Notes: generated from the letters alone by a model not told the origin. A stretch of DNA of 64,000 nucleotides from Escherichia coli (GCF_050920415.1 NZ_CP169309.1), one strand, 5' to 3'; counted from the stretch's first letter, positions 10,037 to 64,000 are shown. Program-made: numbers and translations.

Positions 10037-10142
10037 TCACCCTGTGTGACGTCGATTCGGGCGTCACGCTCTCTCCTTTTTCAGTTTACCTTCCGCGGAG
10101 GGTAGGGGGAGCTTTTACCTGAAATACGCCACGGAGGCGGGT

Positions 10143-10430
10143 ATGAAACTGGCAGTCGTCACTGGACAAATTGTTTGTACCGTACGCCATCACGGACTGG
10201 CGCATGACAAATTGCTGATGGTGGAAATGATTGATCCACAAGGTAATCCTGACGGGCAATGCGCCGTCGCCATCGACAATATTGGCGCGGGAACCGGGGA
10301 GTGGGTGTTGCTGGTGAGTGGCAGTTCCGCCCGCCAGGCGCATAAAAGCGAAACGTCACCGGTCGATCTGTGCGTGATTGGCATCGTCGATGAGGTGGTC
10401 TCTGGCGGTCAGGTAATTTTCCACAAATAA
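10143..10430 (+). CDS. eutN: Microcompartment vertex protein EutN
   Basis: 95 aa, MKLAVVTGQIVCTVRHHGL...; EutN/CcmL-family pattern. Confidence 0.9.
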   Translation: MKLAVVTGQIVCTVRHHGLAHDKLLMVEMIDPQGNPDGQCAVAIDNIGAGTGEWVLLVSGSSARQAHKSETSPVDLCVIGIVDEVVSGGQVIFHK

Positions 10431-11855: not shown

Positions 11856-12692
11856 ATGGCGCACGACGAACAATGGCTTACCCCGCGGCTGCAAACGGCG
11901 GCAACGCTGTGTAACCAGACGCCCGCCGCGTCGGAATCTCCGCTGTGGCTGGGGGTAGATCTGGGCACCTGCGATGTGGTGTCGATGGTTGTCGACTGCG
12001 ACGGTCAGCCGGTGGCGGTATGTCTCGACTGGGCCGATGTGGTCCGCGACGGCATCGTCTGGGATTTCTTCGGTGCTGTCACCATTGTTCGTCGCCATCT
12101 CGATACCCTTGAGCAGCAATTTGGTCGCCGTTTTAGCCATGCGGCGACCTCATTTCCTCCTGGTACGGACCCGCGTATTTCCATCAACGTGCTGGAGTCT
12201 GCCGGGCTGGAAGTGAGCCATGTGCTTGATGAGCCAACCGCAGTCGCGGATCTACTGCAACTGGACAACGCCGGTGTAGTGGATATTGGCGGCGGCACTA
12301 CCGGAATTGCCATCGTGAAAAAGGGCAAGGTGACTTATTCAGCGGATGAAGCGACCGGCGGACATCACATTTCTCTGACTCTCGCCGGAAATCGCCGTAT
12401 TTCGCTGGAAGAGGCAGAGCAGTACAAGCGCGGTCACGGTGACGAGATTTGGCCTGCGGTGAAGCCGGTGTACGAAAAAATGGCGGACATTGTTGCCCGG
12501 CATATTGAAGGGGAGGGCATTACTGATTTATGGCTGGCGGGCGGCTCTTGTATGCAACCGGGCGTGGCGGAACTGTTTCGCAAACAATTCCCGGCGTTAC
12601 AGGTGCATTTACCGCAGCACAGTTTGTTTATGACCCCGCTGGCGATCGCCAGTAGCGGGCGAGAGAAAGCGGAGGGGCTATATGCAAAATGA
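11856..12692 (+). CDS. eutJ: Ethanolamine utilisation chaperone-like protein EutJ (actin/Hsp70-fold ATPase)
   Basis: 278 aa; DLGTCDVV and DIGGGTTGIA phosphate-binding motifs. Confidence 0.9.
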   Translation: MAHDEQWLTPRLQTAATLCNQTPAASESPLWLGVDLGTCDVVSMVVDCDGQPVAVCLDWADVVRDGIVWDFFGAVTIVRRHLDTLEQQFGRRFSHAATSFPPGTDPRISINVLESAGLEVSHVLDEPTAVADLLQLDNAGVVDIGGGTTGIAIVKKGKVTYSADEATGGHHISLTLAGNRRISLEEAEQYKRGHGDEIWPAVKPVYEKMADIVARHIEGEGITDLWLAGGSCMQPGVAELFRKQFPALQVHLPQHSLFMTPLAIASSGREKAEGLYAK

Positions 12693-13869
12693 ATTGCAGA
12701 CCGCGCTCTTTCAGGCGTTCGATACCCTGAATCTGCAACGGGTAAAAACATTTAGCGTTCCACCGGTGACGCTTTGCGGTCCGGGCGCGGTGAGCAGTTG
12801 TGGGCAGCAAGCGCAAACGCGTGGGCTGAAACATCTGTTCGTGATGGCAGACAGCTTTTTGCATCAGGCGGGGATGACCGCCGGGCTGACGCGCAGTCTG
12901 GCAGTAAAAGGCATCGCCATGACGCTCTGGCCGTGTCCGGTGGGCGAACCGTGCATCACTGACGTGTGTGCAGCCGTGGCGCAGTTGCGTGAATCAGGCT
13001 GTGATGGGGTGATCGCGTTTGGCGGTGGCTCGGTGCTGGATGCGGCAAAAGCCGTGGCGTTGCTGGTAACGAATCCCGATAGCACGCTGGCAGAAATGTC
13101 AGAAACCAGCGTTCTGCAACCGCGCCTGCCGTTGATTGCCATTCCAACTACCGCCGGAACCGGCTCTGAAACCACCAATGTAACGGTGATTATCGACGCG
13201 GTGAGCGGGCGCAAGCAGGTGTTAGCACATGCCTCGTTGATGCCGGATGTGGCGATTCTCGACGCCGCGCTGACCGAAGGTGTGCCGTCGCATGTCACGG
13301 CAATGACCGGTATCGACGCGTTAACTCATGCTATTGAAGCGTACAGCGCGCTGAACGCTACACCGTTTACAGACAGCCTGGCGATTGGCGCAATTGCGAT
13401 GATTGGTAAATCACTGCCGAAAGCAGTGGGCTACGGTCATGACCTTGCCGCGCGCGAGAGTATGTTGCTCGCATCATGCATGGCGGGAATGGCATTTTCC
13501 AGTGCCGGACTTGGGTTATGTCACGCGATGGCGCATCAGCCGGGGGCGGCGCTGCATATTCCGCACGGACTGGCGAACGCCATGCTGCTGCCCACGGTGA
13601 TGGAGTTTAACCGGATGGTCTGTCGCGAACGGTTTAGTCAGATTGGTCGGGCGCTGCGAACTAAAAAATCCGACGATCGTGATGCTATTAACGCGGTAAG
13701 TGAGCTGATTGCGGAAGTCGGGATTGGTAAACGGCTGGGCGATGTTGGCGCGACATCTGCGCATTACGGTGCATGGGCGCAGGCTGCGCAGGACGATATT
13801 TGTCTGCGTAGCAACCCGCGTACTGCCAGCCTGGAGCAGATCGTCGGCCTGTACGCGGCGGCGCAATAA
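12682..13869 (+). CDS. eutG: Iron-containing alcohol dehydrogenase EutG
   Basis: 395 aa; GGGSVLDAAKA motif typical of Fe-ADH. Confidence 0.9.
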   Translation: MQNELQTALFQAFDTLNLQRVKTFSVPPVTLCGPGAVSSCGQQAQTRGLKHLFVMADSFLHQAGMTAGLTRSLAVKGIAMTLWPCPVGEPCITDVCAAVAQLRESGCDGVIAFGGGSVLDAAKAVALLVTNPDSTLAEMSETSVLQPRLPLIAIPTTAGTGSETTNVTVIIDAVSGRKQVLAHASLMPDVAILDAALTEGVPSHVTAMTGIDALTHAIEAYSALNATPFTDSLAIGAIAMIGKSLPKAVGYGHDLAARESMLLASCMAGMAFSSAGLGLCHAMAHQPGAALHIPHGLANAMLLPTVMEFNRMVCRERFSQIGRALRTKKSDDRDAINAVSELIAEVGIGKRLGDVGATSAHYGAWAQAAQDDICLRSNPRTASLEQIVGLYAAAQ

Positions 13870-13870
13870 A

Positions 13871-14057
<187 letters not shown>

Positions 14058-14085
14058 AAATAACAACTAACAGGGAGTAAAGGCG

Positions 14086-15312
14086 ATGGGAATTAACGAA
14101 ATCATCATGTACATCATGATGTTCTTTATGCTGATAGCTGCCGTGGACAGGATCCTGTCGCAGTTCGGCGGTTCTGCTCGTTTCCTCGGTAAGTTCGGTA
14201 AAAGTATCGAAGGATCCGGCGGCCAGTTCGAAGAAGGCTTTATGGCAATGGGCGCACTGGGCCTGGCGATGGTCGGTATGACCGCACTGGCACCAGTTCT
14301 GGCCCACGTACTTGGGCCGGTGATTATCCCGGTTTACGAAATGCTCGGTGCTAACCCATCGATGTTCGCCGGAACACTGCTGGCGTGCGACATGGGCGGC
14401 TTCTTCCTCGCGAAAGAGCTGGCGGGCGGCGATGTGGCAGCGTGGCTATACTCTGGGTTAATTCTCGGATCGATGATGGGGCCAACGATTGTGTTTTCCA
14501 TTCCGGTGGCGCTCGGCATTATCGAACCTTCTGACCGTCGTTATCTGGCGCTCGGCGTGCTGGCGGGCATTGTGACCATTCCAATTGGCTGTATCGCTGG
14601 AGGTCTGGTAGCTATGTATTCCGGTGTGCAGATCAACGGGCAGCCGGTGGAATTCACCTTTGCGCTTATCCTGATGAATATGATCCCGGTACTTATCGTC
14701 GCGGTGCTGGTGGCGCTGGGGCTGAAATTCATCCCGGAAAAAATGATCAACGGCTTCCAGATCTTCGCCAAATTCCTCGTTGCATTGATCACCCTCGGTC
14801 TTGCCGCTGCGGTAGTGAAATTCCTCCTTGGCTGGGAACTGATCCCCGGTCTGGATCCGATCTTCATGGCTCCAGGCGACAAACCCGGTGAAGTGATGCG
14901 CGCCATTGAAGTTATCGGTTCTATCTCCTGCGTTCTGTTAGGGGCGTATCCGATGGTGCTGCTGCTGACACGCTGGTTTGAAAAACCGCTGATGAGCGTC
15001 GGTAAAGTGCTGAATATGAACAATATCGCGGCAGCCGGCATGGTGGCAACGCTTGCCAACAACATCCCGATGTTTGGCATGATGAAGCAGATGGATACCC
15101 GCGGCAAAGTCATCAACTGTGCCTTCGCCGTTTCCGCTGCTTTCGCCCTGGGTGACCACTTAGGCTTCGCCGCTGCCAACATGAACGCCATGATCTTCCC
15201 GATGATTGTCGGCAAGTTGATCGGCGGCGTAACGGCGATTGGCGTGGCGATGATGCTGGTGCCAAAAGAAGACGCGACCGCGGCTAAAACCGAAGCGGAG
15301 GCACAATCGTGA
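14086..15312 (+). CDS. eutH: Ethanolamine permease EutH
   Basis: 408 aa polytopic membrane protein; operon position. Confidence 0.9.
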   Translation: MGINEIIMYIMMFFMLIAAVDRILSQFGGSARFLGKFGKSIEGSGGQFEEGFMAMGALGLAMVGMTALAPVLAHVLGPVIIPVYEMLGANPSMFAGTLLACDMGGFFLAKELAGGDVAAWLYSGLILGSMMGPTIVFSIPVALGIIEPSDRRYLALGVLAGIVTIPIGCIAGGLVAMYSGVQINGQPVEFTFALILMNMIPVLIVAVLVALGLKFIPEKMINGFQIFAKFLVALITLGLAAAVVKFLLGWELIPGLDPIFMAPGDKPGEVMRAIEVIGSISCVLLGAYPMVLLLTRWFEKPLMSVGKVLNMNNIAAAGMVATLANNIPMFGMMKQMDTRGKVINCAFAVSAAFALGDHLGFAAANMNAMIFPMIVGKLIGGVTAIGVAMMLVPKEDATAAKTEAEAQS

Positions 15313-16712
15313 ACACTCGCCAGCTACTGAGCGTCGGTATCGATATCGGCACTACCACCACCCAGGTGATCTTCTCCCACCTGGAGCTGGTTAACCGTGC
15401 GGCGGTGTCGCAGGTGCCGCGCTACGAATTCATCAAACGCGAAATTAGCTGGCAAAGCCCGGTGTTCTTTACCCCTGTCGATAAACAGGGCGGTTTAAAA
15501 GAAGAGGAACTGAAATCCTTAATCCTCGAGCAATATCAGGCTGCGGGCATTGCGCCGGAAAGTGTGGATTCCGGTGCCATCATCATCACCGGCGAAAGCG
15601 CGAAAACCCGCAATGCTCGCCCGGCGGTGATGACGCTCTCTCAGTCGCTGGGCGATTTTGTCGTTGCCAGCGCTGGGCCGCATCTCGAATCCGTGATCGC
15701 CGGTCACGGTGCCGGGGCGCAAACCCTTTCTGAACAACGGTTATGTCGGGTACTGAATATCGACATCGGCGGTGGCACCGCGAACTACGCTTTGTTCGAT
15801 GCCGGAAAAATCAGCGGCACTGCCTGCCTTAACGTCGGCGGCCGCCTGCTGGAAACCGACAGCCAGGGACGCGTGGTTTACGCTCATATACCGGGGCAGA
15901 TGATTGTGGATGAGTGCTTCGGTGCAGGCACTGACGCCTGTTCACTGACCGGCGCGCAGCTGGTGCAGGTTACCCGGCGGATGGCGGAACTGATTGTCGA
16001 AGTGATTGACGGAACGCTCTCGCCGCTCGCGCAGGCATTGATGCAAACCGGTTTGCTGCCCGCAGGTGTTACGCCCGAAATCATTACGCTTTCTGGCGGC
16101 GTGGGCGAATGTTATCGCCACCAGCCCGCTGACCCGTTCTGTTTTGCCGATATTGGCCCGCTTCTGGCAACGGCGCTGCATGAGCATCCTCGTCTGCGTG
16201 AGATGAACGTGCAGTTTCCAGCGCAAACCGTGCGCGCCACGGTGATTGGCGCAGGCGCACATACCCTTTCGCTCTCTGGCAGCACAATCTGGCTGGAGGG
16301 GGTACAACTGCCGCTGCGCAATTTGCCGGTGGCGATCCCAATTGATGAAACGGATCTGGTGAGTGCCTGGCAACAAGCGCTAATTCAACTGGATCTTTGC
16401 CCCAAAACTGACGCGTACGTGCTGGCGCTTCCCGCCTCGCTGCCTGTGCGTTACGCCGCGGTACTGACGGTCATCAACGCGCTGGTCGATTTCGTCGCGC
16501 GTTTTCCGAATCCGCATCCCCTGCTGGTGGTGGCCGGGCAGGACTTTGGTAAAGCTCTGGGCATGTTGTTGCGTCCACAGCTACAACAACTCCCGTTGGC
16601 AGTCATTGACGAAGTGATTGTCCGCGCGGGGGACTATATCGACATTGGTACGCCTCTTTTTGGCGGATCGGTTGTGCCGGTGACGGTGAAATCACTCGCA
16701 TTTCCTTCCTGA
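15309..16712 (+). CDS. eutA: Ethanolamine ammonia-lyase reactivase EutA
   Basis: 467 aa; 4-nt overlap with eutH. Confidence 0.9.
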   Translation: MNTRQLLSVGIDIGTTTTQVIFSHLELVNRAAVSQVPRYEFIKREISWQSPVFFTPVDKQGGLKEEELKSLILEQYQAAGIAPESVDSGAIIITGESAKTRNARPAVMTLSQSLGDFVVASAGPHLESVIAGHGAGAQTLSEQRLCRVLNIDIGGGTANYALFDAGKISGTACLNVGGRLLETDSQGRVVYAHIPGQMIVDECFGAGTDACSLTGAQLVQVTRRMAELIVEVIDGTLSPLAQALMQTGLLPAGVTPEIITLSGGVGECYRHQPADPFCFADIGPLLATALHEHPRLREMNVQFPAQTVRATVIGAGAHTLSLSGSTIWLEGVQLPLRNLPVAIPIDETDLVSAWQQALIQLDLCPKTDAYVLALPASLPVRYAAVLTVINALVDFVARFPNPHPLLVVAGQDFGKALGMLLRPQLQQLPLAVIDEVIVRAGDYIDIGTPLFGGSVVPVTVKSLAFPS

Positions 16713-24880: not shown

Positions 24881-25093
24881 ACGGCCTGAGTTGTAATAAT
24901 AAAGTTCCAGATGTTATATCGTATCGCGTAATCCGTTACGACCGTTTGCTGTTGAGAATTGTTTTACTTTTCATTTCAATAGTTGACAACTCCCCATTAT
25001 GCCACTTTTTTAACCGATTTTCGTCAGATATTGGCTAATTCGACCGTTCACGCCATAATCAGCCTTTTAACCCGCAAAAAGGTAACGAATACC

Positions 25094-25519
25094 ATGGAGA
25101 TACGCGTATTTCGCCAGGAAGATTTCGAAGAGGTCATCACCCTTTGGGAGCGTTGCGACTTGCTGCGTCCGTGGAACGATCCGGAAATGGACATCGAGCG
25201 CAAAATGAACCATGACGTCAGTCTGTTTCTGGTCGCTGAGGTAAACGGTGAAGTGGTCGGAACGGTGATGGGCGGTTATGACGGGCATCGCGGGTCTGCT
25301 TATTATCTTGGCGTGCATCCAGAGTTTCGTGGGCGTGGGATTGCTAATGCGTTGCTTAATCGGCTGGAGAAAAAGCTGATTGCTCGCGGCTGCCCGAAAA
25401 TTCAGATCAATGTGCCGGAAGATAACGACATGGTGCTCGGAATGTATGAACGCCTTGGATATGAACACGCCGACGTGCTGAGTCTGGGCAAGCGTTTGAT
25501 TGAAGATGAAGAGTACTGA
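25094..25519 (+). CDS. ypeA: GNAT-family N-acetyltransferase YpeA
   Basis: ORF 24983..25519 trimmed to ATG 25094 ([14 protein letters not shown]...), 141 aa. Confidence 0.85.
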
Positions 25520-25955
25520 GTTTCATCCTGCCCATTATGATGCGCACGGACGCCTGCGTTTACCTTTTCTCTTCTGGCTTGTGCTGTTGCTTCAGGCGCG
25601 AACCTGGGTGCTGTTTGTCATTGCCGGTGCGTCGCGTGAGCAGGGTACTGCGCTGTTGAATCTGTTTTATCCCGATCACGATAATTTCTGGCTGGGGTTA
25701 ATTCCTGGCATTCCTGCGGTGCTGGCGTTTTTGTTGAGCGGTCGGCGGGCTACGTTTCCTCGCATCTGGTATGTACTCTATTTTCTGTTGCTGTTGGCGC
25801 AGCTCGTTTTGCTTTGCTGGCAACCGTGGTTGTGGCTGAACGGTGAATCCGTTAGCGGTATCGGTCTGGCGCTGGTAGTGGCGGATATTGTGGCGTTAAT
25901 CTGGCTGCTGACCAATCGACGTTTACGCGCTTGTTTTAATGAAGAAAAAGAATAA
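25506..25955 (+). CDS. yfeZ: Inner membrane protein YfeZ
   Basis: About 149 aa hydrophobic protein; start taken at the second ATG ([11 protein letters not shown]...); overlaps the ypeA end. Confidence 0.8.
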
Positions 25956-26015
25956 CGGCACTTTTTGGTGAATTTGCACTCCAAGCAACGTTATTGAATA
26001 ACCAAAGGAAGTGAC

Positions 26016-26591
26016 ATGAAATCGCTGCGTTTAATGTTATGCGCTATGCCGTTGATGCTGACCGGCTGTTCCACGATGTCGTCAGTTAACTGGTCTGCCG
26101 CTAACCCGTGGAACTGGTTTGGGTCGTCCACCAAAGTGAGCGAGCAGGGCGTTGGTGAATTAACGGCGTCCACACCACTGCAAGAACAAGCCATTGCCGA
26201 TGCGCTTGATGGCGATTATCGCCTGCGCAGCGGAATGAAAACCGCGAACGGCAACGTGGTGCGCTTTTTTGAAGTGATGAAAGGCGACAACGTGGCGATG
26301 GTGATTAACGGCGATCAGGGCACGATCAGCCGCGTTGATGTGCTGGATAGCGATATTCCAGCTGACTCCGGTGTTAAAATCGGTACACCGTTTAGCGACC
26401 TTTACAGCAAAGCATTTGGCAATTGCCAAAAAGCTGATGGTGATGATAATCGTGCCGTCGAATGTAAAGCCGAAGGCAGTCAACATATTAGCTACCAGTT
26501 CAGCGGGGAATGGAGTGGTCCTGAAGGGTTAATGCCTTCGGACGATACCCTGAAAAACTGGAAAGTCAGTAAAATTATCTGGCGGCGTTAA
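26016..26591 (+). CDS. yfeY: Lipoprotein YfeY
   Basis: 191 aa; lipobox LTGC in the signal peptide (MKSLRLMLCAMPLMLTGCS). Confidence 0.88.
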   Translation: MKSLRLMLCAMPLMLTGCSTMSSVNWSAANPWNWFGSSTKVSEQGVGELTASTPLQEQAIADALDGDYRLRSGMKTANGNVVRFFEVMKGDNVAMVINGDQGTISRVDVLDSDIPADSGVKIGTPFSDLYSKAFGNCQKADGDDNRAVECKAEGSQHISYQFSGEWSGPEGLMPSDDTLKNWKVSKIIWRR

Positions 26592-46888: not shown

Positions 46889-48913
<2,025 letters not shown>

Positions 48914-48914
48914 G

Positions 48915-49133
48915 ATGGAAAAAGAGCAGCTGATTGAAATAGCCAATACGATAATGCCGTTTGGCAAATACAAAGGGCGTCGATTAATCGACCTGCCGGA
49001 GGAGTATCTTCTGTGGTTTGCCCGCAAAGATGAGTTCCCGGCAGGGAAGCTCGGTGAGCTAATGCAAATCACGCTGCTGATTAAAACCGAGGGGCTGACG
49101 CAACTGGTCCAGCCCCTGAAACGCCCACTTTAA
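48915..49133 (+). CDS. ypeB: Small protein YpeB
   Basis: ORF trimmed to ATG 48915, directly after the ligA stop; 72 aa, MEKEQLIEIANTIMPFGKYKGRRLIDLPEEY... Confidence 0.8.
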   Translation: MEKEQLIEIANTIMPFGKYKGRRLIDLPEEYLLWFARKDEFPAGKLGELMQITLLIKTEGLTQLVQPLKRPL

Positions 49134-50128
49134 GCTTTATCGGCGCTGCTTTCCTGCTGCGCCTGTAACTGTTCGGTCTGGCGTTTGTATCGACGCGCCA
49201 GCACCGCACAGACCATCAATTGGATCTGATGGAAAATCATCAGAGGCAGCACCATCATACCGATCACCGATGTGGGGAACAGAATGTTTGCCATCGGGAT
49301 GCCATTTGCCAGACTCTTTTTCGAACCACAAAAGACGATAGTAATTTCATCTGCCTTATTGAAGCCTAGTCGGCGTGCCATAAAGACGTTAACTACAATC
49401 ACGATAGCCAGAAGAACGCAACTGACCACCACGATAAACAGCAATGATCCCCAGCCAACTTTGTGCCAGATACCGTTAACGACGGCTTCGCTGAATGCCG
49501 TATAAACCACCAACAGAATGGACGTCTGGTCAGTTTTCGCAATCCATTTTTTATTACGCGACACCCAGTCACCAATCCACGGCCGCGAAAGATGCCCCAA
49601 CACAAATGGCAGCAGCAGTTGCAGCATTATCTTACCTACCTGCTCAAGGCTGCCCCCTGCACCGTGAACATTCATCACCAGGCCAACCAGCAACGGTGAA
49701 AGGAAAATCCCCAGTAGGCTGGATGCTGACGCAGAACAAACCGCCGCCGCGACGTTACCGCCCGCCATTGACGTGAAGGCGATTGCAGACTGCACGGTCG
49801 CGGGGAGAATGCACAAGTAGAGAAAACCGGAGTAGAGCATCGGGTCGACATTTACCGGTTTCCACCACGCAAACAGCACGCCCAGAATCGGAAACAGCAC
49901 GAAGGTGCTGCACATTACCCATAAATGCAGTCGCCAATGACCACCGCCTGCAATAATGGCCTCTCGCGATAACTTCGCGCCGTGCATAAAGAACAGCAGA
50001 GCAATGGCTGCGGTAGTCAGATTTTCAAAGAAGGGAACGAAATCGCCCCTGGCCGGAAAGAAAGAGGCCAGCAACACCACCGTGATCAGGGTTAAGGTGA
50101 AAGGATCGAGGATACGAAAAAGTTTCAT
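49130..50128 (-). CDS. yfeH: Putative Na+-dependent transporter of the bile acid:sodium symporter family, YfeH
   Basis: 332 aa polytopic membrane protein. Confidence 0.85.
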   Translation of the reverse strand: MKLFRILDPFTLTLITVVLLASFFPARGDFVPFFENLTTAAIALLFFMHGAKLSREAIIAGGGHWRLHLWVMCSTFVLFPILGVLFAWWKPVNVDPMLYSGFLYLCILPATVQSAIAFTSMAGGNVAAAVCSASASSLLGIFLSPLLVGLVMNVHGAGGSLEQVGKIMLQLLLPFVLGHLSRPWIGDWVSRNKKWIAKTDQTSILLVVYTAFSEAVVNGIWHKVGWGSLLFIVVVSCVLLAIVIVVNVFMARRLGFNKADEITIVFCGSKKSLANGIPMANILFPTSVIGMMVLPLMIFHQIQLMVCAVLARRYKRQTEQLQAQQESSADKA

Positions 50129-50217
50129 AAAGACTCCAGATGATCGATGGTTCTATTGTGCTTCTTCCAGTTTGAGAAATAAAATTGATTTATTGCATCC
50201 ATTCATGAAGAAAACAG

Positions 50218-55552: not shown

Positions 55553-55607
55553 GCAGATAGTAAAAAAGCGCCTTTAGGGCGCTTTTTTACATTGGTGGGT
55601 CGTGCAG
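55553..55607 (-). repeat. Direct repeat copy 1: tRNA-Lys 3'-end fragment plus terminator hairpin
   Basis: gcagatagtaaaaaagcgcctttagggcgcttttttacattggtgggtcgtgcag; on the minus strand this reads CTGCACGACCCACCA (tRNA 3' end) followed by an A-run/gcgcc/ggcgc/T-run terminator. Confidence 0.7.
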
Positions 55608-55674
55608 GATGACTCGCTTCGCTCGCCCTTCGGGCCGTCGCCGCGAGCGGCTCCGTTGTTTCGCTGCGCTCAAC

Positions 55675-55698
55675 TCGAACCTGCTGCAGGTTCGAATC
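55675..55698. other. Palindrome built from head-to-head tRNA T-arm fragments
   Basis: tcgaacctgc-tgcaggttcgaatc; GGTTCGAATC is the conserved tRNA T-arm, present in both orientations. Confidence 0.55.
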
Positions 55699-55708
55699 TT
55701 TGAGTATC

Positions 55709-55763
55709 GCAGATAGCAAAAAAGCGCCTTTAGGGCGCTTTTTTACATTGGTGGGTCGTGCAG
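55709..55763 (-). repeat. Direct repeat copy 2: tRNA-Lys 3'-end fragment plus terminator hairpin
   Basis: 55-bp copy with one mismatch to copy 1, 156 bp downstream of it. Confidence 0.7.
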
Positions 55764-55927: not shown

Positions 55928-56227
55928 TCAGGAGATCATTAACCCGGATTCACCTTCCACGATCACACCACCATGTTCGGTGGTATCTCCCATACGGGCA
56001 ACGGCTTTACCGTTAATTTTGAGAACCGTTGAACCGGAAACAATAGTGTCTTTGCTACCGCTACCTTTGCAGGTGAGCTTATCACCCACCAACGCCAGCG
56101 GAACACCATTATACGTAACAAAGGTCTGCTGACATTCACTGACCGGGCCACCAATATGTGGGCGGGGGCCGGGATCAACTTTCGGGCAGGTATGGTTATG
56201 TCCTTTGAGTACCACGGCTTTACTCAT
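55928..56227 (-). CDS. PAAR-domain protein (putative T6SS spike-sharpening protein)
   Basis: ORF 55928..56317 trimmed to ATG 56227, which overlaps the upstream stop as ATGA; 99 aa, MSKAVVLKGHNHTCP...LKINGKAVARMGDTTEHGGVIVEGESGLMIS with a PAAR-like KAVAR motif. Confidence 0.7.
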   Translation of the reverse strand: MSKAVVLKGHNHTCPKVDPGPRPHIGGPVSECQQTFVTYNGVPLALVGDKLTCKGSGSKDTIVSGSTVLKINGKAVARMGDTTEHGGVIVEGESGLMIS

Positions 56228-56982
56228 CGTCTGTTCTCCTGCGCAGTTTTTGTGAATATGTCCAGAAGTCGCCAGTAAGCATACTCCTGTTGTCCCAGAT
56301 TCAGGCAACCATACCACCGTGGATGCAGAGGATCATCAAAACAACGAAATCCGTCATAATATTGGGCTACTGCCAGTAGCACTTCGGCCTGTCCGCCGGA
56401 TTCATAGCGGGATAGCGCCCGCCTTGCACTAGCCATCAGTTGTCGGTATATATTTTCATATAGCTCAACTGTTGGCGAAAAAGCCGTTCTTTTTTCCACC
56501 GTATACAGGCGGGTGAAAATCTGACCACTCCCCAGCCAGGCATTGTGATATTGGGGGATAATGCAGTGAGGCGTATCCGGCCCCCAGGAATGTTTATAGT
56601 GTTCACTAAGCCAGTCAACAGACCAGTCATCTTTATGTGCTATCAGGTATGCAGGTATAGTCTCATCTTGCGGGGATGTCTTTGCACTAATGTAGTGTTC
56701 AACAATTTTCTGCAATTCCGTATAGCGGACATCCTCCATAAAAAACGATCCCAGGCACAATCTGGCACTGGCAATATGTATAGCAAGCAATTGATCAGGA
56801 ACTTTTTGAGTCTCAGTCCATTGATAGCTCTGTCTGATTAATTCATCAATAGCGGATGCGGGAAGCTTTCTGTCGGTAATAACCTTACCAAAGCGGTTTA
56901 CCAGCCAGACGCGGCCCTTTTTCAGAAATTCCATCATCCGGTGCTCCGCCAGACTACGGTAAGTTGCTTCTGTTATCCTCAT
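56224..56982 (-). CDS. Hypothetical protein, paralog of the 309-aa upstream gene; candidate T6SS immunity protein
   Basis: 252 aa; shares FMEDVRYTELQKIVEHYISA and LLAIHIASA motifs with FVKEALYTQNEVLLKEWLTA and IVLAIEMLAS of the neighbour. Confidence 0.45.
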   Translation of the reverse strand: MRITEATYRSLAEHRMMEFLKKGRVWLVNRFGKVITDRKLPASAIDELIRQSYQWTETQKVPDQLLAIHIASARLCLGSFFMEDVRYTELQKIVEHYISAKTSPQDETIPAYLIAHKDDWSVDWLSEHYKHSWGPDTPHCIIPQYHNAWLGSGQIFTRLYTVEKRTAFSPTVELYENIYRQLMASARRALSRYESGGQAEVLLAVAQYYDGFRCFDDPLHPRWYGCLNLGQQEYAYWRLLDIFTKTAQENRR

Positions 56983-57014
56983 GACTTCAGCCTCTCCCTT
57001 ACGCTATTGCAACA

Positions 57015-57944
57015 TTATTTAAAAAGCGTTTTTGTAAAAGCCAATTCCGGGTTAATGGCGATCAGTTTATCCAGCAATGGATAAAACCACTCCGGGGCAT
57101 TCCAGCGGCTGAAATCGGGGCGATGATCAATTGCCAGCGGTGTTTTTAACAGCGGATGATCGATTTCTGGGGTGGAAAGACCATGCTCTGCCCGAAAATT
57201 TTTTACTGCCTGATATTCAAACGGCCAGAGCAGCAATTCTCGGTCTTCAATTTCATAACCATTTCTGGCATATTCGTCTTCAGTTGTTTCGGTACGTGCC
57301 GACCATTTAAGATGGTTATCGCAAAGTGCTGTCAGCCACTCCTTCAGCAAGACTTCATTCTGTGTGTAGAGCGCTTCTTTTACAAACTGGGTATAAAAAC
57401 GATCAGAGGGGATACCAAATGTCTCCCAGTTGATAGTTTGTTTCTGTTCGCTGGCAAGCATTTCAATTGCCAGCACAATCATTTTTTGCGGTTTAAGCTT
57501 TTTAGCTTTTGCTACGTCAAAGTTTTTCAAACCTTGGGTGAAATAAGGATAATAAAGACGGGCGATATCAAGACGATGCGTTGCCATAAATGATAGGAGT
57601 GGAATTCCTTTCTTATAGAAAAAACCATCTAAGAAACCTGTGGTTTTAGAATATTGAATGGCTTCACAAAACAAATTCATGGATTTACATGCAACATAAT
57701 CACATATTAACGAGTTATCCTCTTTGTTTTTGTAAAATAAATACCACGCATATAGATAACAAAAGGATGAAGCTGCATCATAGAATATATATTGTGAATC
57801 AGATATTTCCTCGCCATTCGAATTGCCCACTTCTAATAAAGCATCAGAAATATCCTCATTGGAAATGTTTATATATCTGTTAACATCCATGTTAAAGGAA
57901 CTTTCATTAACAAAATAAGAATGAATTTCATTGTATCTTTTCAA
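57015..57944 (-). CDS. Hypothetical protein, paralog of the 252-aa downstream gene; candidate T6SS immunity protein
   Basis: 309 aa; AT-rich N-terminal third; C-terminal region homologous to the 252-aa ORF. Confidence 0.45.
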   Translation of the reverse strand: MKRYNEIHSYFVNESSFNMDVNRYINISNEDISDALLEVGNSNGEEISDSQYIFYDAASSFCYLYAWYLFYKNKEDNSLICDYVACKSMNLFCEAIQYSKTTGFLDGFFYKKGIPLLSFMATHRLDIARLYYPYFTQGLKNFDVAKAKKLKPQKMIVLAIEMLASEQKQTINWETFGIPSDRFYTQFVKEALYTQNEVLLKEWLTALCDNHLKWSARTETTEDEYARNGYEIEDRELLLWPFEYQAVKNFRAEHGLSTPEIDHPLLKTPLAIDHRPDFSRWNAPEWFYPLLDKLIAINPELAFTKTLFK

Positions 57945-57946
57945 TT

Positions 57947-58972
57947 TTAATTTCCTTCTTTTTGAGGAAGACTACTGTGAAAAGGAATATCCGTTTTAAA
58001 TTTATCTTTGACTATTTTTGCATCACCAAACCACAAGGAAATAGATGACATTCCCTCTGGGCAAGCTATGTTTTCAATTAATTTATATTCTTCGTTTATA
58101 CCTTGACCAATAACAAGTCCTATAACGCCCATTTCACCATTAGGTTTATTTTGATCTCGAAGTGCTTTTAGCAATTTTTTTACATTTCTTCGTTTTTCAT
58201 CATCCATCACATAACCACCTGGATTTTCTTTATTCATTTTTAACGCATTTTCAATTCTCTCTATAGCATAGTCAATGGCTCCCTCCTGTTTCTCTGATAA
58301 AATACCTTCATACTGCGTAAAATCACCTGCATCGTCACCATGACATGCCTTTGTTTTTACTTCACAGATCAGCCAAAAATCATCCGGCGGCGGTGAAGGG
58401 TTTTTTACTTTAGCAACAAGATCAAGGCCGTTTTTGGTTTTGACGTGCTGAACCGACATCACCGAACCTTCTACTACGCTGAAGTTAACGGTAGCCGTTG
58501 CCTGTTTAGCCTCCTTATTATAGATATGAAATTGTGCATTTCCCTGTTTCATCTTCCTGGCGAGAAGCACCTCGCCAACATCACCAGTAAACTGATTGAT
58601 TTTCAAAGAAAATAAGCTATCAAAAATCTTATTTTTAATCAAAAAATTAGCAACCTCAGTTGCGCTCATGCCAATTTCTGTATCGCCATTAACCTTTACG
58701 CGAAATGTTGCGTGTGTTGTACTGCCAGGCTCAAGCTCTGACTCAATACGTACAATTGCTTCCGTTGCATCTTTATTACCGGAACCTGACGCATGTGTTA
58801 TCCCTACAGTAATCCTGGTCGGGCCGGCTTGTTCTTCAAAAGTGGCAAAGGCCGTATTGGCTCTGAGGACTTCAGCCTCGGCTTCTTTTACTCTTTTCGC
58901 ATCATTAATCGCACGCCGGTTTACCTGCGTAACATTTACTGCATCTTCGATAGCCCCTGTACCTTTTCCCAT
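57947..58972 (-). CDS. Hypothetical protein with a possible PD-(D/E)xK nuclease motif; candidate T6SS toxin domain or immunity protein
   Basis: 341 aa; start overlaps the upstream stop as TAATG; literal PDDFWLICEVK matches the P-D...(D/E)-x-K pattern. Confidence 0.4.
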   Translation of the reverse strand: MGKGTGAIEDAVNVTQVNRRAINDAKRVKEAEAEVLRANTAFATFEEQAGPTRITVGITHASGSGNKDATEAIVRIESELEPGSTTHATFRVKVNGDTEIGMSATEVANFLIKNKIFDSLFSLKINQFTGDVGEVLLARKMKQGNAQFHIYNKEAKQATATVNFSVVEGSVMSVQHVKTKNGLDLVAKVKNPSPPPDDFWLICEVKTKACHGDDAGDFTQYEGILSEKQEGAIDYAIERIENALKMNKENPGGYVMDDEKRRNVKKLLKALRDQNKPNGEMGVIGLVIGQGINEEYKLIENIACPEGMSSISLWFGDAKIVKDKFKTDIPFHSSLPQKEGN

Positions 58973-60306
58973 TATTTTTCCACTCCCTGGTCTTCATTCT
59001 CAATCTTCATTGAGGAAACCTCTACTTCATTTACCAGTGCAACCTTACTGCCAAGGTAAGCGCCGCCACCACTGGTAACTAATGCTGAAGCAAATTTATA
59101 TTGTGGTTTTTTACCAAATACCATCAGGGTATTTATTGCATGAAAGGCCACTTCAATATTATGTCCCCCACCTGATTTTTTATCCAGATAGCGGGAAAAC
59201 TCAAGCAGTGGATTATATCCATCGGCTTTTGAACCAAGCCACCGATTACGCAGTTTATCCGCTACCTCAATACCATGATTGACATCCACAACAAGCATAG
59301 CAATACGAAGAACCTTCATTGAACCTTTTAAAAAAATAGTCCCGGAAACAATAGCAGCAATCGTCAGAAGTGCATCAGCGACCTCTAAAATAACATCCCT
59401 TACAACATCAAGAGACCGGTTCTCATCAGCCTGATTAAGAACGGCACGGATAAATTCTTCCGCCAGATCAGAGGGGGATTTATGTAATGGGCCGGCCAGT
59501 CTTTCAGGACGACTTCCTGCACTATTTGTCGCCAGCTCACCATATATCAGCGATACATCAAGTGTTTCATATGGACGGTATTTCAGTTGCTCATCGGTTA
59601 ACACATCCCGGTATTCAGCAGGAAGACCTATCGGAACTTCTGCATCTCTGTAGATATAAATATCCGGCGCAACCTCAACAACAAAATCATCTCCCCAGAA
59701 TGTACTGCCATGAGTTCTGGCATGTTCCACTTTATAATTATTACTGTAATAAGGGATAATATTTGCACCAACCTCATGGTATCTTAATTTAAATTTAGCA
59801 TCTTCCAGTTGAACGGTTTCTCCTTTATATTTAACAGCAAACCCGTTGCCGTCTGGGCTTTCCCTGGCCTGTTCGTCAAAAAGCAGTGCAAAATTGAGAA
59901 ATGCTTCATCCCCAAGTTGTTTTCTGACGGCATCAAAAAACGCATCCATTGCCACAATTTCTTTTGCTGTTTCAATAGCATTTCTTTCCGCATCCGTTAA
60001 ATCTGGCGAGTCCTGTATTGTTGCATAACGGGTGATTTCATTATTCAGACTACGGAGTGGAATACCTCGCTGTAAATGTACCTGTGAGGTCTTCTTATCC
60101 ACTGGCTCAAAGAAAGATCCCATGAAACTGGCTGTATTCTTATAAAAGTCTTCTATCGCCTGCTGTCCCTCAGCCGTTGAGCTGTCAAACTCCACAAAAG
60201 CGCCAAATGGTTTCAGCGGGCATGTTGCTGTTGCGCTTTTTGCATCACACGGTATTGCGTCAGAAGGAATGCTTCCCGTTGCCGCTCCGTCAGTATCATC
60301 CATCAC
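58972..60306 (-). CDS. Hypothetical protein; candidate T6SS cargo effector partnered with the DUF4123 adaptor
   Basis: 444 aa; sits directly downstream of the DUF4123 gene, the canonical effector position; hydrophobic segment ALLTIAAIVSGTIFL; no GxSxG lipase motif. Confidence 0.45.
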   Translation of the reverse strand: MMDDTDGAATGSIPSDAIPCDAKSATATCPLKPFGAFVEFDSSTAEGQQAIEDFYKNTASFMGSFFEPVDKKTSQVHLQRGIPLRSLNNEITRYATIQDSPDLTDAERNAIETAKEIVAMDAFFDAVRKQLGDEAFLNFALLFDEQARESPDGNGFAVKYKGETVQLEDAKFKLRYHEVGANIIPYYSNNYKVEHARTHGSTFWGDDFVVEVAPDIYIYRDAEVPIGLPAEYRDVLTDEQLKYRPYETLDVSLIYGELATNSAGSRPERLAGPLHKSPSDLAEEFIRAVLNQADENRSLDVVRDVILEVADALLTIAAIVSGTIFLKGSMKVLRIAMLVVDVNHGIEVADKLRNRWLGSKADGYNPLLEFSRYLDKKSGGGHNIEVAFHAINTLMVFGKKPQYKFASALVTSGGGAYLGSKVALVNEVEVSSMKIENEDQGVEK

Positions 60307-60322
60307 TTACACTCCTTTTTTG

Positions 60323-60898
60323 CTATATAAAGACCAGACTATTTTTTTCTTTTGGGTTTTCACAAATAATATTTGTCAGTCCGGTGGTAAATTCTGCAAA
60401 ATCGTCCGCAGGTAAAAAAGGAATAAAATCCCGCACTGTTTCAGGCGCATAATACCGGAACATGACCCACATTTTATTTACCTCATCATAAAGCTGATTA
60501 AATTTTCGCAGATGATGAGTCAGTTCATTCAGGGAAAGATAGCTGCGGATAAAAATACCCCAGCCATTACCCCGGCTGCTTCTTATCAGCCATTCCGTAA
60601 ATGGCTTATCTTTTTCCAGCCGGACGATATAAGGCGCATAAAGAGAAAACTGTTCTCCCAGTTCACCTTTCCATAAGCATGACCATTCCGTCTCATACGC
60701 ATCAAGTAAAACGGCAATATCCGGTTTTTTTAATGCATCAATGATGGCATAAGTGTGGCAGTCAGTTATTTTACTGGCAGATATCACTGATATATCATCA
60801 GATGCTGTTTTTTCCGGCATACTGAAAAGAAAGCCTGTCAGCGCATCCTGGTATAATTGTGTATCTTCCGGCACATCAATAATTTTCAGTCGGCTCAT
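60323..60898 (-). CDS. DUF4123-family T6SS effector adaptor/chaperone (Tap/Tec-like)
   Basis: 191 aa; YAIIDA, YAPYIV, HLRKF and RYYAPETVRDF motifs match my recollection of the DUF4123 signature; ATGA overlap with the vgrG stop. Confidence 0.75.
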   Translation of the reverse strand: MSRLKIIDVPEDTQLYQDALTGFLFSMPEKTASDDISVISASKITDCHTYAIIDALKKPDIAVLLDAYETEWSCLWKGELGEQFSLYAPYIVRLEKDKPFTEWLIRSSRGNGWGIFIRSYLSLNELTHHLRKFNQLYDEVNKMWVMFRYYAPETVRDFIPFLPADDFAEFTTGLTNIICENPKEKNSLVFI

Positions 60899-62967
60899 TT
60901 TTTCCCGTCCTCTTCTTCGGCCTGTTTTGCTTTCGCACAGATTTCGCAGAACGGTTTGCCCTCATTCACCATCGCCGTCAGTGCTTCCACCTGATCCACG
61001 CCGCCGCCCCGGATATCCATTGCTGGCGTCAGGATCTGAAGTTTTTTTGCCTTTATCGTAACGCCACCACCATCAATGGTCAGACTGCCGCCAGGCCCGG
61101 CGATCACCAGTCGCTCTCCGGCGTGCATAATGTATTTATTGGTCTGCGAAAAAATCTTCGTATTTACCGTTTCATCCTTCACGCCCTGGATCACCACCGT
61201 TTTATTGCCGCCAATATCGTCCAGGGAATCAGCAAATATTTTCTTTCTTTCCGAACTGTTCACCACCAGCGTCCGGTTTCTGTCCACTTCGATTTCCTGA
61301 TCCTGAACCACCCGGACAACGGAGTTCCTGCCGATGGTTTCATAGTGATCCCGGCCCACATCTGTTTTCTTGTCCTGACCAATGGTTTCCTGCTGGTCAA
61401 CGCCCACGCTTTTGGCGCGGTTATTACCGATGGTATGGCTTTCATCGTGCAGAATTTCCGTCACATGGTCTTTCTGCGCGTGCATATAGACCTGTTCCCG
61501 GTTTGTGGCGTCTTCAAAACGCAGTTCATTAAAACCCTCGCCCCGGTAGGTCTGCGTGCGGATAGTGGTCTGCGTTTTCGTTTCCGGTAAATCCCCCGGC
61601 GAGCGATTTTTCTCATGGTAGGTGCGCCCCATGATGATCGGCTGGTCAGGATCACCGTTTAAAAAATCGACAATCACCTCCTGACCCACACGCGGAATGG
61701 CAAGATGACCAAATCCCGTCCCGGCCCATGGCTGTGATACTCTGATCCAGCAGGAACTGTTCTCATCCTGTTTGTGATAACGATCCCACAAAAATTTCAC
61801 CCGCACCCGGCCATGCTCGTCGCAGAAGATTTCCTCACCTTCCGGCCCGGTGACGACCGCTGGTTGTGGGCCATCCACTTTCGGCTTAGGCTGCGGCGTG
61901 GGACGCCAGGTTTTATCCGCTGGTATGGCCTGAAACGTATTCACCAGCGTGGTTCCCTGGCCCCGGCTTCCGGGAACGGCCTGCGGCTGCTCGCCGTGCA
62001 GTTCGCTGGCGATCACCTGCCATTCCCGGTTCAGATCGTCAGCCGGATGATCGGTCAGCGTAAAGCGCGTACCGGGCCACAGTTTTGGCGAGTTGCTGCA
62101 TCCCCTGGCGATCTCCGCATCATTGCGCCAGCCTTCCATCTGGTAACGGGTAAAATCTCTGCCATGCTGTTCGTCCTTAAAACGCCCCGGATAGTCCATC
62201 ACCTCATACTGGTTGCGCTGGCCGTTAAGACTGGCGGCATTATGGCGAAAACGCCCCGGCCAGTCAGGGTATTTGAAGGTGTAGTCTTTGCTGATGACAT
62301 ACGCCGGGCGTATCTGCGCACTGTGGCGGAACTGGCTGATATACTCCGTTTCCGTGGCGCGGGGTTCCGGGTTAAACGGAAGGGGGAAGGCTTCCGGCAG
62401 GTAGTAAACTTTATCGCAGAACACCAGCGGCTGATCCTTCCCTTCACGGGCGTGCTCTTCGTAAAAAAATATCCCTTCTTCCGCCAGCAGGCGGCAGAGA
62501 AAACCAAAATCAGTTTCACCGTACTGCACGCAGAACTCCCGCGCCGGATGAGGCTCGCCCAGCAGATAAGCCGTCTGCATCACCCGGTTGTCATCCAGCA
62601 GGTGCTTAATAATGGACTGAATATCCTGCTGCTGAAAATGGCGAAAATTTTCCCGCAGGCTGCTGCGCCAGAAAGGAGGATGCACCCGCAGGTAGTAGTT
62701 CATTTTATGACCGTCATATTCCCCGCGCTCAATCCTGGCTACCAGCCCGGTGATATGGCGCTGTGCGGTATTGTTTTGCCACAGGGTAAGCGTGGCATTC
62801 AGTTCCAGCAGTTCCGTAGATTTAAGGTGGATAGTGTCGCTGATGAGATGAAGATCGAGGGTGAATAATGCGGAGTAATGCTGGGTAAGATGAAAGTTTA
62901 CGACGGCAAAGGTTTCTGTATCAAAATCGCCGATATCAACGGTAAAACGGGTTCCTGTCCGGGGCAT
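60895..62967 (-). CDS. vgrG: Type VI secretion system spike protein VgrG
   Basis: 690 aa; gp27/gp5-like body, e.g. CDEHGRVRVKFLWDRYHKQDENSSCWIRVSQPWAG and repetitive beta-helix region; short C-terminal tail EGKPFCEICAKAKQAEEEDGKK. Confidence 0.9.
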   Translation of the reverse strand: MPRTGTRFTVDIGDFDTETFAVVNFHLTQHYSALFTLDLHLISDTIHLKSTELLELNATLTLWQNNTAQRHITGLVARIERGEYDGHKMNYYLRVHPPFWRSSLRENFRHFQQQDIQSIIKHLLDDNRVMQTAYLLGEPHPAREFCVQYGETDFGFLCRLLAEEGIFFYEEHAREGKDQPLVFCDKVYYLPEAFPLPFNPEPRATETEYISQFRHSAQIRPAYVISKDYTFKYPDWPGRFRHNAASLNGQRNQYEVMDYPGRFKDEQHGRDFTRYQMEGWRNDAEIARGCSNSPKLWPGTRFTLTDHPADDLNREWQVIASELHGEQPQAVPGSRGQGTTLVNTFQAIPADKTWRPTPQPKPKVDGPQPAVVTGPEGEEIFCDEHGRVRVKFLWDRYHKQDENSSCWIRVSQPWAGTGFGHLAIPRVGQEVIVDFLNGDPDQPIIMGRTYHEKNRSPGDLPETKTQTTIRTQTYRGEGFNELRFEDATNREQVYMHAQKDHVTEILHDESHTIGNNRAKSVGVDQQETIGQDKKTDVGRDHYETIGRNSVVRVVQDQEIEVDRNRTLVVNSSERKKIFADSLDDIGGNKTVVIQGVKDETVNTKIFSQTNKYIMHAGERLVIAGPGGSLTIDGGGVTIKAKKLQILTPAMDIRGGGVDQVEALTAMVNEGKPFCEICAKAKQAEEEDGKK

Positions 62968-63406
62968 AACGTTTCCTTAGCAATAATACGGCTCAGAGAT
63001 AACGAAATCATTCATGAGCAATATGAATTATGATTAATAATTCGTAAAAGGAATGTATTTTATAATGACTCTTCCTGTTTTTAGTCAAAGTTGTCATTAT
63101 AATTAATATTATACTAATTAATTTCCAGAAAACTTCTGTAACCAGTAAAAACACTGCTCCGACAACCTAACATAATGTAAATTAACACTATTAACTGGAA
63201 ATTATCATCTTTAAGTTTACATAAATTCCGTGATGCATATCGCAAAGCGGTGATAAATATATATCCTGTGAAAATGAACTTTGCACCTCCACAGAATATG
63301 TTAACGTAATATCATATGGTAGCAGAAGGCTATTAATTAATTATCCGTATTATAAATCTTGTCTGACGCCTTTCTGTTTCTGCTGTATTACGGGAAGGAT
63401 TACCTA
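62968..63406. promoter_or_regulatory. AT-rich divergent control region between vgrG and tssF
   Basis: 439 bp, visibly AT-rich (runs such as ttataattaatattatactaattaattt); no ORF; flanked by divergent starts. Confidence 0.5.
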
Positions 63407-64000
63407 TGGCAATGAACGAACGTTTTTACCGGGAAGAACTGGATTATCTTCGTCAGTATGGCGCGCTGCTGGCGCAGGAATATCCCGCCCTGAAATCTTT
63501 CCTGGGCAGTAAAAACGCTGATCCGAACGTGGAACGCCTGCTGGAAGGGTTCGCGTTTCTCTCCGGCAGACTGCGGGAAAAAATCGAGGATGAGTTTCCC
63601 GAAATCACCGTTCCGCTGATTAACCGTCAGTGGCCCAATTATTTGCGCCCCGTTCCGCCGATGACCGTTATCGAATACACGCCGGACAGCTGCAGGCTTA
63701 CCGCTCCCCTGACCGTTTCACGCGGTGAGCAGGTGATGAATCCGGGGCAGGACAGCCAGCCGGAAAACAGCCGCCCCGGTGATGAATCAGGGGCTACCGG
63801 GGGGCCACCTTCCTGTATCTTCACTTTGTGCCGTGATATCCGCCTCCTGCCGTTGTGCATTGAAACAATACAGAGTCGCAGCAGCCCGCAATCCAGTACC
63901 CTTGATCTCATTTTCACCGTGACGGGAAAAGGCCGGATCGCCACCGCCGATCTGAATCAGATCAGTTTCTGGCTGGGCGATGCGGACGAACGCAGCCGCA
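63407..64000 (+). CDS. tssF: Type VI secretion baseplate protein TssF (ImpG/VasA family), N-terminal 198 aa; continues beyond the window
   Basis: Open frame from ATG 63407 to the window end with no stop (absent from the ORF track for that reason); MAMNERFYREELDYLRQYGALLAQEYPALKSFLGSKNADPNVERLLEGFAFLSGRL... matches the TssF N-terminal signature. Confidence 0.75.

Follow-up and report, generated by a model that had tools for sequence, protein, structure and literature searches.

A mobile type VI secretion spike-and-cargo operon of Escherichia coli that combines a conserved chassis with a proposed swappable toxin cassette

Gene content and layout of the locus

Between positions 55928 and 62967, the 64,000-nucleotide (nt) stretch of the Escherichia coli chromosome analyzed here (GCF_050920415.1, NZ_CP169309.1; hereafter referred to as the window) carries seven closely packed open reading frames (ORFs) on the minus strand: vgrG, the gene for a DUF4123 adaptor, four genes encoding proteins of 444, 341, 309 and 252 amino acids (aa) that we named A, B, C and D, and a PAAR gene. 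This locus is a genuine, intact and horizontally mobile type VI secretion system (T6SS) spike-cargo operon. It consists of a chassis, comprising the C-terminal tail of VgrG, the adaptor, D and PAAR, and of a putative swappable toxin cassette made up of A, B and C, in which B is predicted to be a nuclease and C its immunity protein. The seven genes are listed here from vgrG to the PAAR gene.

60895-62967, minus strand: vgrG; 690 aa, T6SS spike protein with gp27/gp5-like domains (TIGR03361, 3.9e-180; TIGR01646, 4e-129)
60323-60898, minus strand: DUF4123 (Tap/Tec-type) adaptor; 191 aa (Pfam PF13503, 1.5e-20; weak match to the Tla1 chaperone)
58972-60306, minus strand: A; 444 aa, uncharacterised family, proposed adaptor-loaded carrier or co-effector
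57947-58972, minus strand: B; 341 aa, proposed PD-(D/E)xK-type, PoNe-like nuclease toxin
57015-57944, minus strand: C; 309 aa, TTG start, proposed cognate cytoplasmic immunity protein
56224-56982, minus strand: D; 252 aa, uncharacterised family, proposed PAAR-linked accessory factor
55928-56227, minus strand: PAAR spike-tip protein; 99 aa from an ATG inside a 129-aa ORF (PHROG 281, 3e-14)

All seven ORFs that a first-pass annotation of the window had placed here are present, and their junctions are as tight as it had described them. The vgrG and DUF4123 genes share an ATGA overlap; the adaptor gene is followed after 16 nt by the GTG start of A (444 aa), or after 19 nt by the ATG chosen by the Prokaryotic Genome Annotation Pipeline (PGAP; 443 aa); A and B share a TAATG overlap; B and C are 2 nt apart; the 32-nt gap between C and D contains a Shine-Dalgarno sequence (GGGAGAGG); and D and the PAAR gene are again joined by an ATGA overlap. 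This spacing suggests that the seven genes form one transcript. A consensus scan for promoters and terminators revealed promoter-like sites at the level expected from shuffled sequences, none of them decisive, and the scan therefore has no bearing on co-transcription. As the first-pass annotation had also pointed out, the cargo genes are more AT-rich than vgrG (GC content of 0.30-0.44 versus 0.51-0.59), with a minimum of 0.30 at positions 57500-58250, a segment that reaches from the 3' end of B into the 5' half of C.

Two gene calls require comment. The homologues of D all begin with MR[IL]T, and this N-terminus aligns with the 252-aa start at position 56982; the PGAP/RefSeq call for D (237 aa, start at 56937) is therefore probably too short. 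The PAAR protein matches NF033420 with a value of 5e-9, which lies under the curated cut-off; RefSeq names it a PAAR domain-containing protein, and its orthologues carry PF05488.

The first-pass annotation had regarded the four proteins between the adaptor and PAAR as uncharacterised, and they are indeed so: single-sequence searches with A, B, C and D gave no meaningful match in Pfam, NCBIfam, PADLOC, PHROGs or the PDB sequences, and profile searches of PDB with A, C and D gave no match either. These families are also rare. At 90% identity, the A family comprises seven and the B family six clusters within 5.8 billion proteins; when all of 1.84 billion representatives were scanned with a hidden Markov model of B, 22 proteins were retrieved, and the D profile picked out five loci in 100,044 species genomes. 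None of the papers in the library searched mentions the adaptor or A to D by RefSeq or UniProt accession.

Wherever a homologue lies in a sequence context long enough to show its neighbors, the gene order is (tssF or hcp)-vgrG-DUF4123-A-B-C-D-PAAR. We found this order in Klebsiella spallanzanii, Serratia fonticola, Pectobacterium parmentieri, Budvicia aquatica and several metagenomic contigs, as well as in an Enterobacteriaceae metagenome-assembled genome (MAG), where the module stands beside tssM, tssA and VasL; it is kept even where the identity of the B proteins is down to 21-30%. Its occurrence in several genera identifies the seven ORFs as real genes, and A to D as integral, co-inherited parts of one T6SS module family. 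An origin from phage structural, anti-phage defence or housekeeping genes was rejected, since neither PHROG nor PADLOC matches were obtained for the cargo proteins and all contexts are T6SS contexts. The vgrG, DUF4123 and PAAR genes always travel alongside, and this constant linkage, the rarity of the families and a type of variation typical of toxins and their immunity proteins (see below) together support the earlier suggestion that the locus carries a candidate for an undescribed effector/immunity set.

Conserved chassis and variable cassette

A second E. coli allele of the island, in which all seven genes are intact, allows the extent of divergence to be compared gene by gene. Relative to the window, VgrG (98.7% identity), the adaptor (99.5%), D (96.4%) and PAAR (98.0%) are nearly the same in the two alleles, whereas A (85.7%), B (78%) and C (72.8%) differ. 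The differences are concentrated: identity is 43-53% at residues ~210-270 of A, 53-76% in the C-terminal half of B, and 23-56% in the N-terminal 120 aa of C, whose C-terminal half is 83-100% identical. The hypervariable zone consequently begins in the middle of A, takes in B and reaches into the N-terminal half of C; it is also where the GC content of the window is lowest. Such a zone is the footprint that would be expected of a diversifying toxin/immunity interface set between conserved recombination anchors.

The same division is visible between clades, in which A and B are 25-31%, C 37-45%, the adaptor 47-62% and PAAR 71-91% identical (71-92% over the modules as a whole); among three closely related modules of the Serratia/Pectobacterium type, the adaptor reaches 83-88% identity. 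The module of the Enterobacteriaceae MAG combines an A-B-C set of the window type (49-54%) with a D (46-50%) and a PAAR (91%) of the Budvicia type, which shows that A-B-C recombines independently of D-PAAR. Comparison of the VgrG proteins of different modules gives identities of 68-95% for the last 130 aa versus 39-81% for residues 1-560, and the C-terminal tail (...GGGVDQVEALTAMVNEGKPFCEICAKAK...) is conserved in all of them. A conserved VgrG C-terminal motif that binds the adaptor has been described by Colautti et al. 2024 (PMC11582642), and the conserved tail found here would fit such a docking site.

In P. parmentieri, the module has been expanded into an array (positions 12351-16182 of that sequence) with the order A-B-C1-[B']-C2-[A and B fragments]-C3-D-PAAR. 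The B' gene is in frame and retains residues 1-129 and 289-329; the deleted part, residues 130-288, is the candidate catalytic region. The fragments correspond to residues 397-424 of A and 285-329 of B. C1, C2 and C3 are intact and 56-67% identical to each other, and D is present in a single copy. This arrangement has the look of a classic orphan-immunity pattern, in which immunity genes are retained and toxins discarded, and it can be read as the record of successive cassette replacements. The family thus displays the two hallmarks by which a polymorphic toxin-immunity cassette is recognised: hypervariability enclosed by conserved flanks, and an orphan-immunity array with degraded toxin remnants.

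Candidate roles of the four cargo proteins

An alignment of the B superfamily (18 sequences) contains one invariant residue of catalytic type, E134, and four that are nearly invariant, G130, D184, K206 and Q229; position 204 is either E or D. The overall pattern is (helix) GE ... G[LI]D ... PPP ... W-x3-(E/D)-x-K ... LS-x-x-Q, and the candidate catalytic residues (E134, D184, E204 and K206, plus Q229) are intact in the copy of the window. The succession of a conserved acid in the presumed helix 1, a D and then (D/E)xK on presumed successive strands corresponds to the E/D/(D/E)xK layout that is standard for PD-(D/E)xK nucleases (Steczkiewicz et al. 2012, cited in PMC6688995). An AlphaFold2 (AF2) model of B, built from a shallow alignment of eight sequences, had a predicted local distance difference test (pLDDT) score of 45 and is unusable as a structure; the order of the secondary-structure elements in this low-confidence model agrees with PD-(D/E)xK.

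The top match of the B profile in PDB, with a marginal E value of 0.076, is the T6SS DNase VP14465 (9waq_B). The alignment of the two proteins spans the catalytic GID...ExK motif and a common poly-proline spacer (G-x-D...PPPP...E-x-K), and its true score is 16.5 bits, as compared with at most 5.4 bits in 2000 shuffles. An hhalign comparison of B with a small PoNe alignment gave a probability of 61.5% and a P value of 7.8e-5; the template of this comparison consisted of three sequences, because a word-indexed search with the 66-aa fragment of 9waq_B had returned two short proteins only. VP14465 is a Mg2+/Mn2+-dependent T6SS DNase of Vibrio parahaemolyticus and a member of the PoNe family (PMC13377157), whose motif is Kx3GExnGIDx2YxnYx3ExK, the D of GID being catalytic (PMC6688995, PMC13377157). 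B possesses the GE, G[IL]D and ExK elements of this motif, not the motif in full: the K is absent, no Y follows GID, and W takes the place of the second Y.

B and C thus resemble the PoNe/PoNi pair V12_14465/V12_14460 (PMC6688995, PMC13377157) in that the toxin candidate, predicted here to be delivered by a T6SS, is followed by the gene for a cytoplasmic immunity candidate, and in that the core of B (GE...G[IL]D...aromatic-x3-ExK with a poly-proline spacer) aligns to the catalytic motif. They differ from it in that B is a stand-alone protein of 341 aa and not one of the C-terminal domains borne by FIX, MIX, PAAR or Rhs polymorphic toxins, and in that C contains neither a DUF1911 nor a DUF1910 domain. 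The best-supported reading of B is that of a PD-(D/E)xK-type nuclease toxin, with its activity predicted from these residues. In the first-pass annotation, no toxin or immunity signature had been recognized with confidence in any of the four proteins; B does have a recognizable toxin signature, a PD-(D/E)xK-like motif.

C has no match in Pfam, and a search of PDB with its profile does not recover the PoNi structure 9waq_A. Between genera, its N-terminal part is 25-62% and its C-terminal part 46-83% identical; the latter (residues ~150-309; positions 57015-57500, minus strand) carries the invariant motif LLWPFE.QAV.NFR...TPE..HPL.KTP and could serve as a recombination anchor or provide a second activity. 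Neither C nor D has a signal peptide or a transmembrane (TM) segment, which points to a cytoplasmic target of the toxin. Taken together with the multiplication of C in P. parmentieri, the best-supported role of C is that of a cytoplasmic immunity protein that would neutralise B. The expectation of the first-pass annotation that the gene after the adaptor encodes the effector and the next one its immunity protein does not fit this assignment, as it is the second gene (B) that is nuclease-like and the third (C) that is immunity-like.

The gene for A always lies between those for the adaptor and B and either overlaps B or ends within about 15 nt of it. Wherever a sequence context spans the two genes, A and B occur as a pair, even at a B identity as low as 21%. 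No catalytic-type invariants are present in A across the clades; its central beta domain is variable and is deleted in one distant homologue, and conserved helices that are hydrophobic and rich in glycine make up its last 140 residues, with a hydrophobic stretch at ~301-330. The AF2 model of A (from an eight-sequence alignment) has a pLDDT of 53.7 and is moderately confident for residues 85-300 only; fold searches retrieved uncharacterised relatives only. Neither A nor any of its homologues contains a Pfam domain, a result that extends to MIX only if Pfam-A has a MIX model. A and B hence show the traits of a binary effector, namely adjacent, co-inherited genes of which one (A) lacks toxin features and the other (B) is toxin-like.

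In a binary module of Vibrio, VP1388 is a MIX co-effector, VP1390 the toxin and VP1389 the immunity protein (PMC8728615), and RIX tethers are secreted, non-toxic partners that carry a separate toxin (PMC10435454). The module studied here is similar in that the non-catalytic-looking A always stands beside the toxin candidate B, the two co-diverging, and in that delivery and toxicity are apparently split between them; it is dissimilar in that it also relies on a DUF4123 adaptor and on a VgrG and a PAAR of its own, and in that D brings the number of unknown proteins to four. From the traits of A and these precedents, we infer that A may be an adaptor-loaded carrier or co-effector for B that possibly also helps in membrane translocation. 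This step and the role given to D are the weakest parts of our interpretation.

A could instead be the main toxin, a membrane-inserting, pore-forming or depolarising protein loaded directly by the adaptor as in canonical Tap systems, with B as a second, independent effector or an accessory protein, C as the immunity protein for B and D as that for A. All characterised DUF4123-dependent effectors are encoded where A is, directly after the adaptor gene (PMC11582642), and the conserved hydrophobic, glycine-rich helices at its C-terminus would suit a protein of this kind. Fragments of A decay along with those of B in the orphan array of P. parmentieri, and four proteins can be arranged as two toxin/immunity pairs. 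However, a TM segment or a signal peptide is usual in immunity proteins that counter membrane-targeting T6SS toxins, and the lack of both in C and D argues against a membrane- or periplasm-acting toxin whose immunity gene lies at this locus. Furthermore, D does not behave as a partner of A: the two E. coli alleles are 96% identical in D but 86% in A, D does not vary along with the variable region of A, the two proteins have decoupled phylogenies, and D has not been duplicated in the immunity array. We therefore consider it unlikely that A is the main toxin and proceed with A as a putative carrier of B.

D is always encoded directly upstream of PAAR, at a distance that ranges from an overlap to a 21-nt gap, and its phylogeny follows that of PAAR and not that of A-B-C. 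It consequently lies outside the polymorphic cassette and groups with PAAR, at variance with the first-pass annotation, which had counted it as part of the effector/immunity block. These linkage and conservation patterns lead us to infer that D may be a PAAR-linked accessory factor and part of the delivery chassis. DUF2169 proteins of TvpA-type complexes stabilise DUF4150/PAAR proteins (PMC13373197). D would be comparable to such accessories in concept only, in that a gene that is conserved and does not encode a toxin is closely linked to one for PAAR; it has neither DUF2169 nor any other known domain, and its PAAR is a plain 99-aa protein of the PF05488 type. The assignment of D to the Tvp/DUF2169-type accessories was rejected on account of the missing DUF2169 domain. 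In Saezia sanguinis, a betaproteobacterium, a D-like remnant of 90 aa (9899-10171) is located between two integrase genes, which suggests that the D family or this type of island has moved beyond the Enterobacterales.

A further alternative is that D is not a PAAR accessory but joins C in a two-subunit complex that serves a single A-B toxin as its immunity factor or regulator. The two genes are always adjacent, and in one metagenomic contig a complete module is followed by a second, highly divergent C'-D'-PAAR' trio (6789-8855) without remnants of A or B. P. parmentieri, on the other hand, has multiplied C alone, and D is conserved while the N-terminal half of C hypervaries. Moreover, D appears to be translationally coupled to PAAR, whereas 32 nt and a separate Shine-Dalgarno sequence stand between C and D. 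We consequently regard a C-D complex as quite improbable and retain D as a candidate partner of PAAR. A relationship between the C and D proteins themselves was rejected, since hhalign finds them unrelated. The PAAR' of the metagenomic trio has 87 aa and belongs to another subtype.

Genomic island, firing machine and proposed model

The window derives from the core chromosome of E. coli (eut, cys, pts, xapABR). The module sits on an island that is bounded by an RtT element beside xapR on one side and by a tRNA-Val/Lys cluster on the other. The RtT RNA element (Rfam RF00391, 51.6 bits; 55593-55718, minus strand) lies between xapR and the PAAR gene and may represent the boundary of the island or an old tRNA-linked attachment site. 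The block that runs from PAAR to vgrG is divergent from tssF-tssG, which are followed by a hypothetical gene, a helix-turn-helix (HTH) gene and two integrase genes; the part of this flank that falls into the window comprises two features.

62968-63405, no strand: AT-rich intergenic region (GC content of 0.34-0.37) between the divergent vgrG and tssF genes, presumably containing their promoters
63406-64000, plus strand: 5' part of tssF by RefSeq annotation, cut at the end of the window, with tssG beyond it; same integrase-borne island

Apart from tssF and tssG, which encode baseplate subunits, the island has no T6SS core genes. A complete T6SS-1 cluster is present in the same genome (NZ_CP169399.1, about 4.11-4.15 Mb), 2.6 Mb from the island. 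At 4.13-4.15 Mb, it encompasses hcp, tssB, tssC, tssE, tssF, tssG, tssJ, tssK, tssL (annotated icmH/dotU), tssH, tssA and tssM, in addition to tagH, vasI and VasL. Of vgrG, it has three intact genes and one fragment; PAARs, Tae4 and a Tle1/DUF4123 module are present as well.

A 100% identical module occurs in one of 5426 complete E. coli genomes, that of strain MFDS1022581. Sequences related to the tssF-tssG-HTH flank are found in 468 of these genomes; in the one that we inspected (O145:H28), int-HTH-tssG-tssF is divergent from vgrG at a tRNA-Asn gene, and the surroundings of vgrG are different. In other E. coli assemblies, the second allele of the island adjoins yfeR-yfeH-ligA, and xapABR and yfeN are absent there; insertion of the island in these strains is accompanied by a xap region that is deleted or differently arranged. 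A copy of IS2 lies at positions 48911-50139 of the window, between yfeH and yfeR, and an IS2 transposase identical to that of this copy is located inside the T6SS-1 cargo region of the same strain (24934-26162 of the sequence of that region).

That the module is a decaying, non-functional remnant, left on a tssF/tssG-only island without a dedicated machine and with four genes that have no current role, is highly improbable, for although its island has only these two core genes, beside integrases, and the module itself is found in a single one of the 5426 genomes, the seven ORFs are intact and tightly coupled, the candidate catalytic residues of B are in place, a complete T6SS-1 is present in the same genome, no gene is disrupted in the second E. 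coli allele, and related mini-islands are common (468 genomes with the flank, one of them inspected in full).

We propose instead that the locus is a mobile orphan T6SS spike-plus-cargo operon with a conserved chassis, a swappable cassette and the roles for A to D suggested above, and we would assign this model as a whole a probability of roughly 0.55. According to the model, the adaptor would dock on the conserved C-terminal tail of VgrG and load A, the product of the next gene. A would be secreted as a carrier or co-effector that holds B, and its hydrophobic, glycine-rich C-terminal helices may aid the passage of B across the inner membrane of the target cell. B would then kill as a metal-dependent, PoNe-like PD-(D/E)xK nuclease that cuts DNA in the target cytoplasm. 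Immunity would be conferred in the cytoplasm by C, the cognate partner of B, with the hypervariable half at its N-terminus setting the specificity for B, and D would be coupled to the PAAR subfamily, for instance by stabilising PAAR or by mounting it on the tip of VgrG. The spike would be fired by the complete T6SS-1 machine encoded elsewhere on the chromosome.

Several observations weigh against this model. The link between B and known nucleases is marginal (E value of 0.076, hhalign probability of 61.5%); three residues of the PoNe motif, the K and both Y, are missing from B, and C carries neither DUF1911 nor DUF1910. The model leaves the conservation of the C-terminal half of C unexplained. 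The role of D would follow from linkage and conservation patterns only, and, since the gene directly after the adaptor encodes the toxin in all characterised DUF4123 systems, A could be the toxin itself.

DUF4123 cargo modules are well represented by Tap-1/TseL of V. cholerae, Tap-1/Tde1 of Agrobacterium tumefaciens, TecT/TseT of Pseudomonas aeruginosa and the Tap/Rhs/Tle systems, and five classes of DUF4123 neighborhoods have been distinguished, namely Rhs, Tle, alpha/beta hydrolase, MIX and MATE (PMC11582642). The module of the window follows their plan in that vgrG overlaps the DUF4123 gene, which is followed by cargo, in the conserved VgrG tail and in the presence of PAAR in the operon. 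It departs from this plan in that its cargo belongs to none of the five classes and in that four conserved genes of unknown function, instead of one effector gene and one immunity gene, lie between the adaptor and PAAR. The system is therefore of a known kind, a VgrG-adaptor-effector-immunity-PAAR auxiliary module; what sets it apart from the modules known so far is its cargo class, the proposed division into toxin and carrier, and D.

A bolder version of the model is possible, and we put it forward only tentatively: the module may represent a new, deeply conserved seven-gene class of spike loading that divides delivery and toxicity between two polypeptides. In this version, A is an adaptor-loaded carrier with membrane-inserting helices that would bring B, a member of a new family of PD-(D/E)xK toxins, into the cytoplasm of the target; C represents a new immunity family with a modular domain for specificity, and D a new accessory family needed to mount this PAAR subtype on VgrG. 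If true, it would add a sixth cargo class to those of the DUF4123 adaptors, and a new PAAR helper.

T6SS effectors have been found piecemeal because they share no common signals, and the locus described here offers four undescribed families, a rigid architecture and a testable division of labour. If our model is correct, B would be a new branch of PD-(D/E)xK DNase toxins that is paired with an immunity family other than PoNi, and D would be a new class of PAAR accessory proteins. Should A be a carrier, delivery by co-effectors would extend from the MIX and RIX systems of Vibrio to adaptor-dependent VgrG loading in the Enterobacterales. The conserved flanks of the variable zone could serve in the design of swappable toxin cassettes, and the integrase-borne mini-island shows a route by which E. 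coli strains gain weapons for a T6SS that they already possess.

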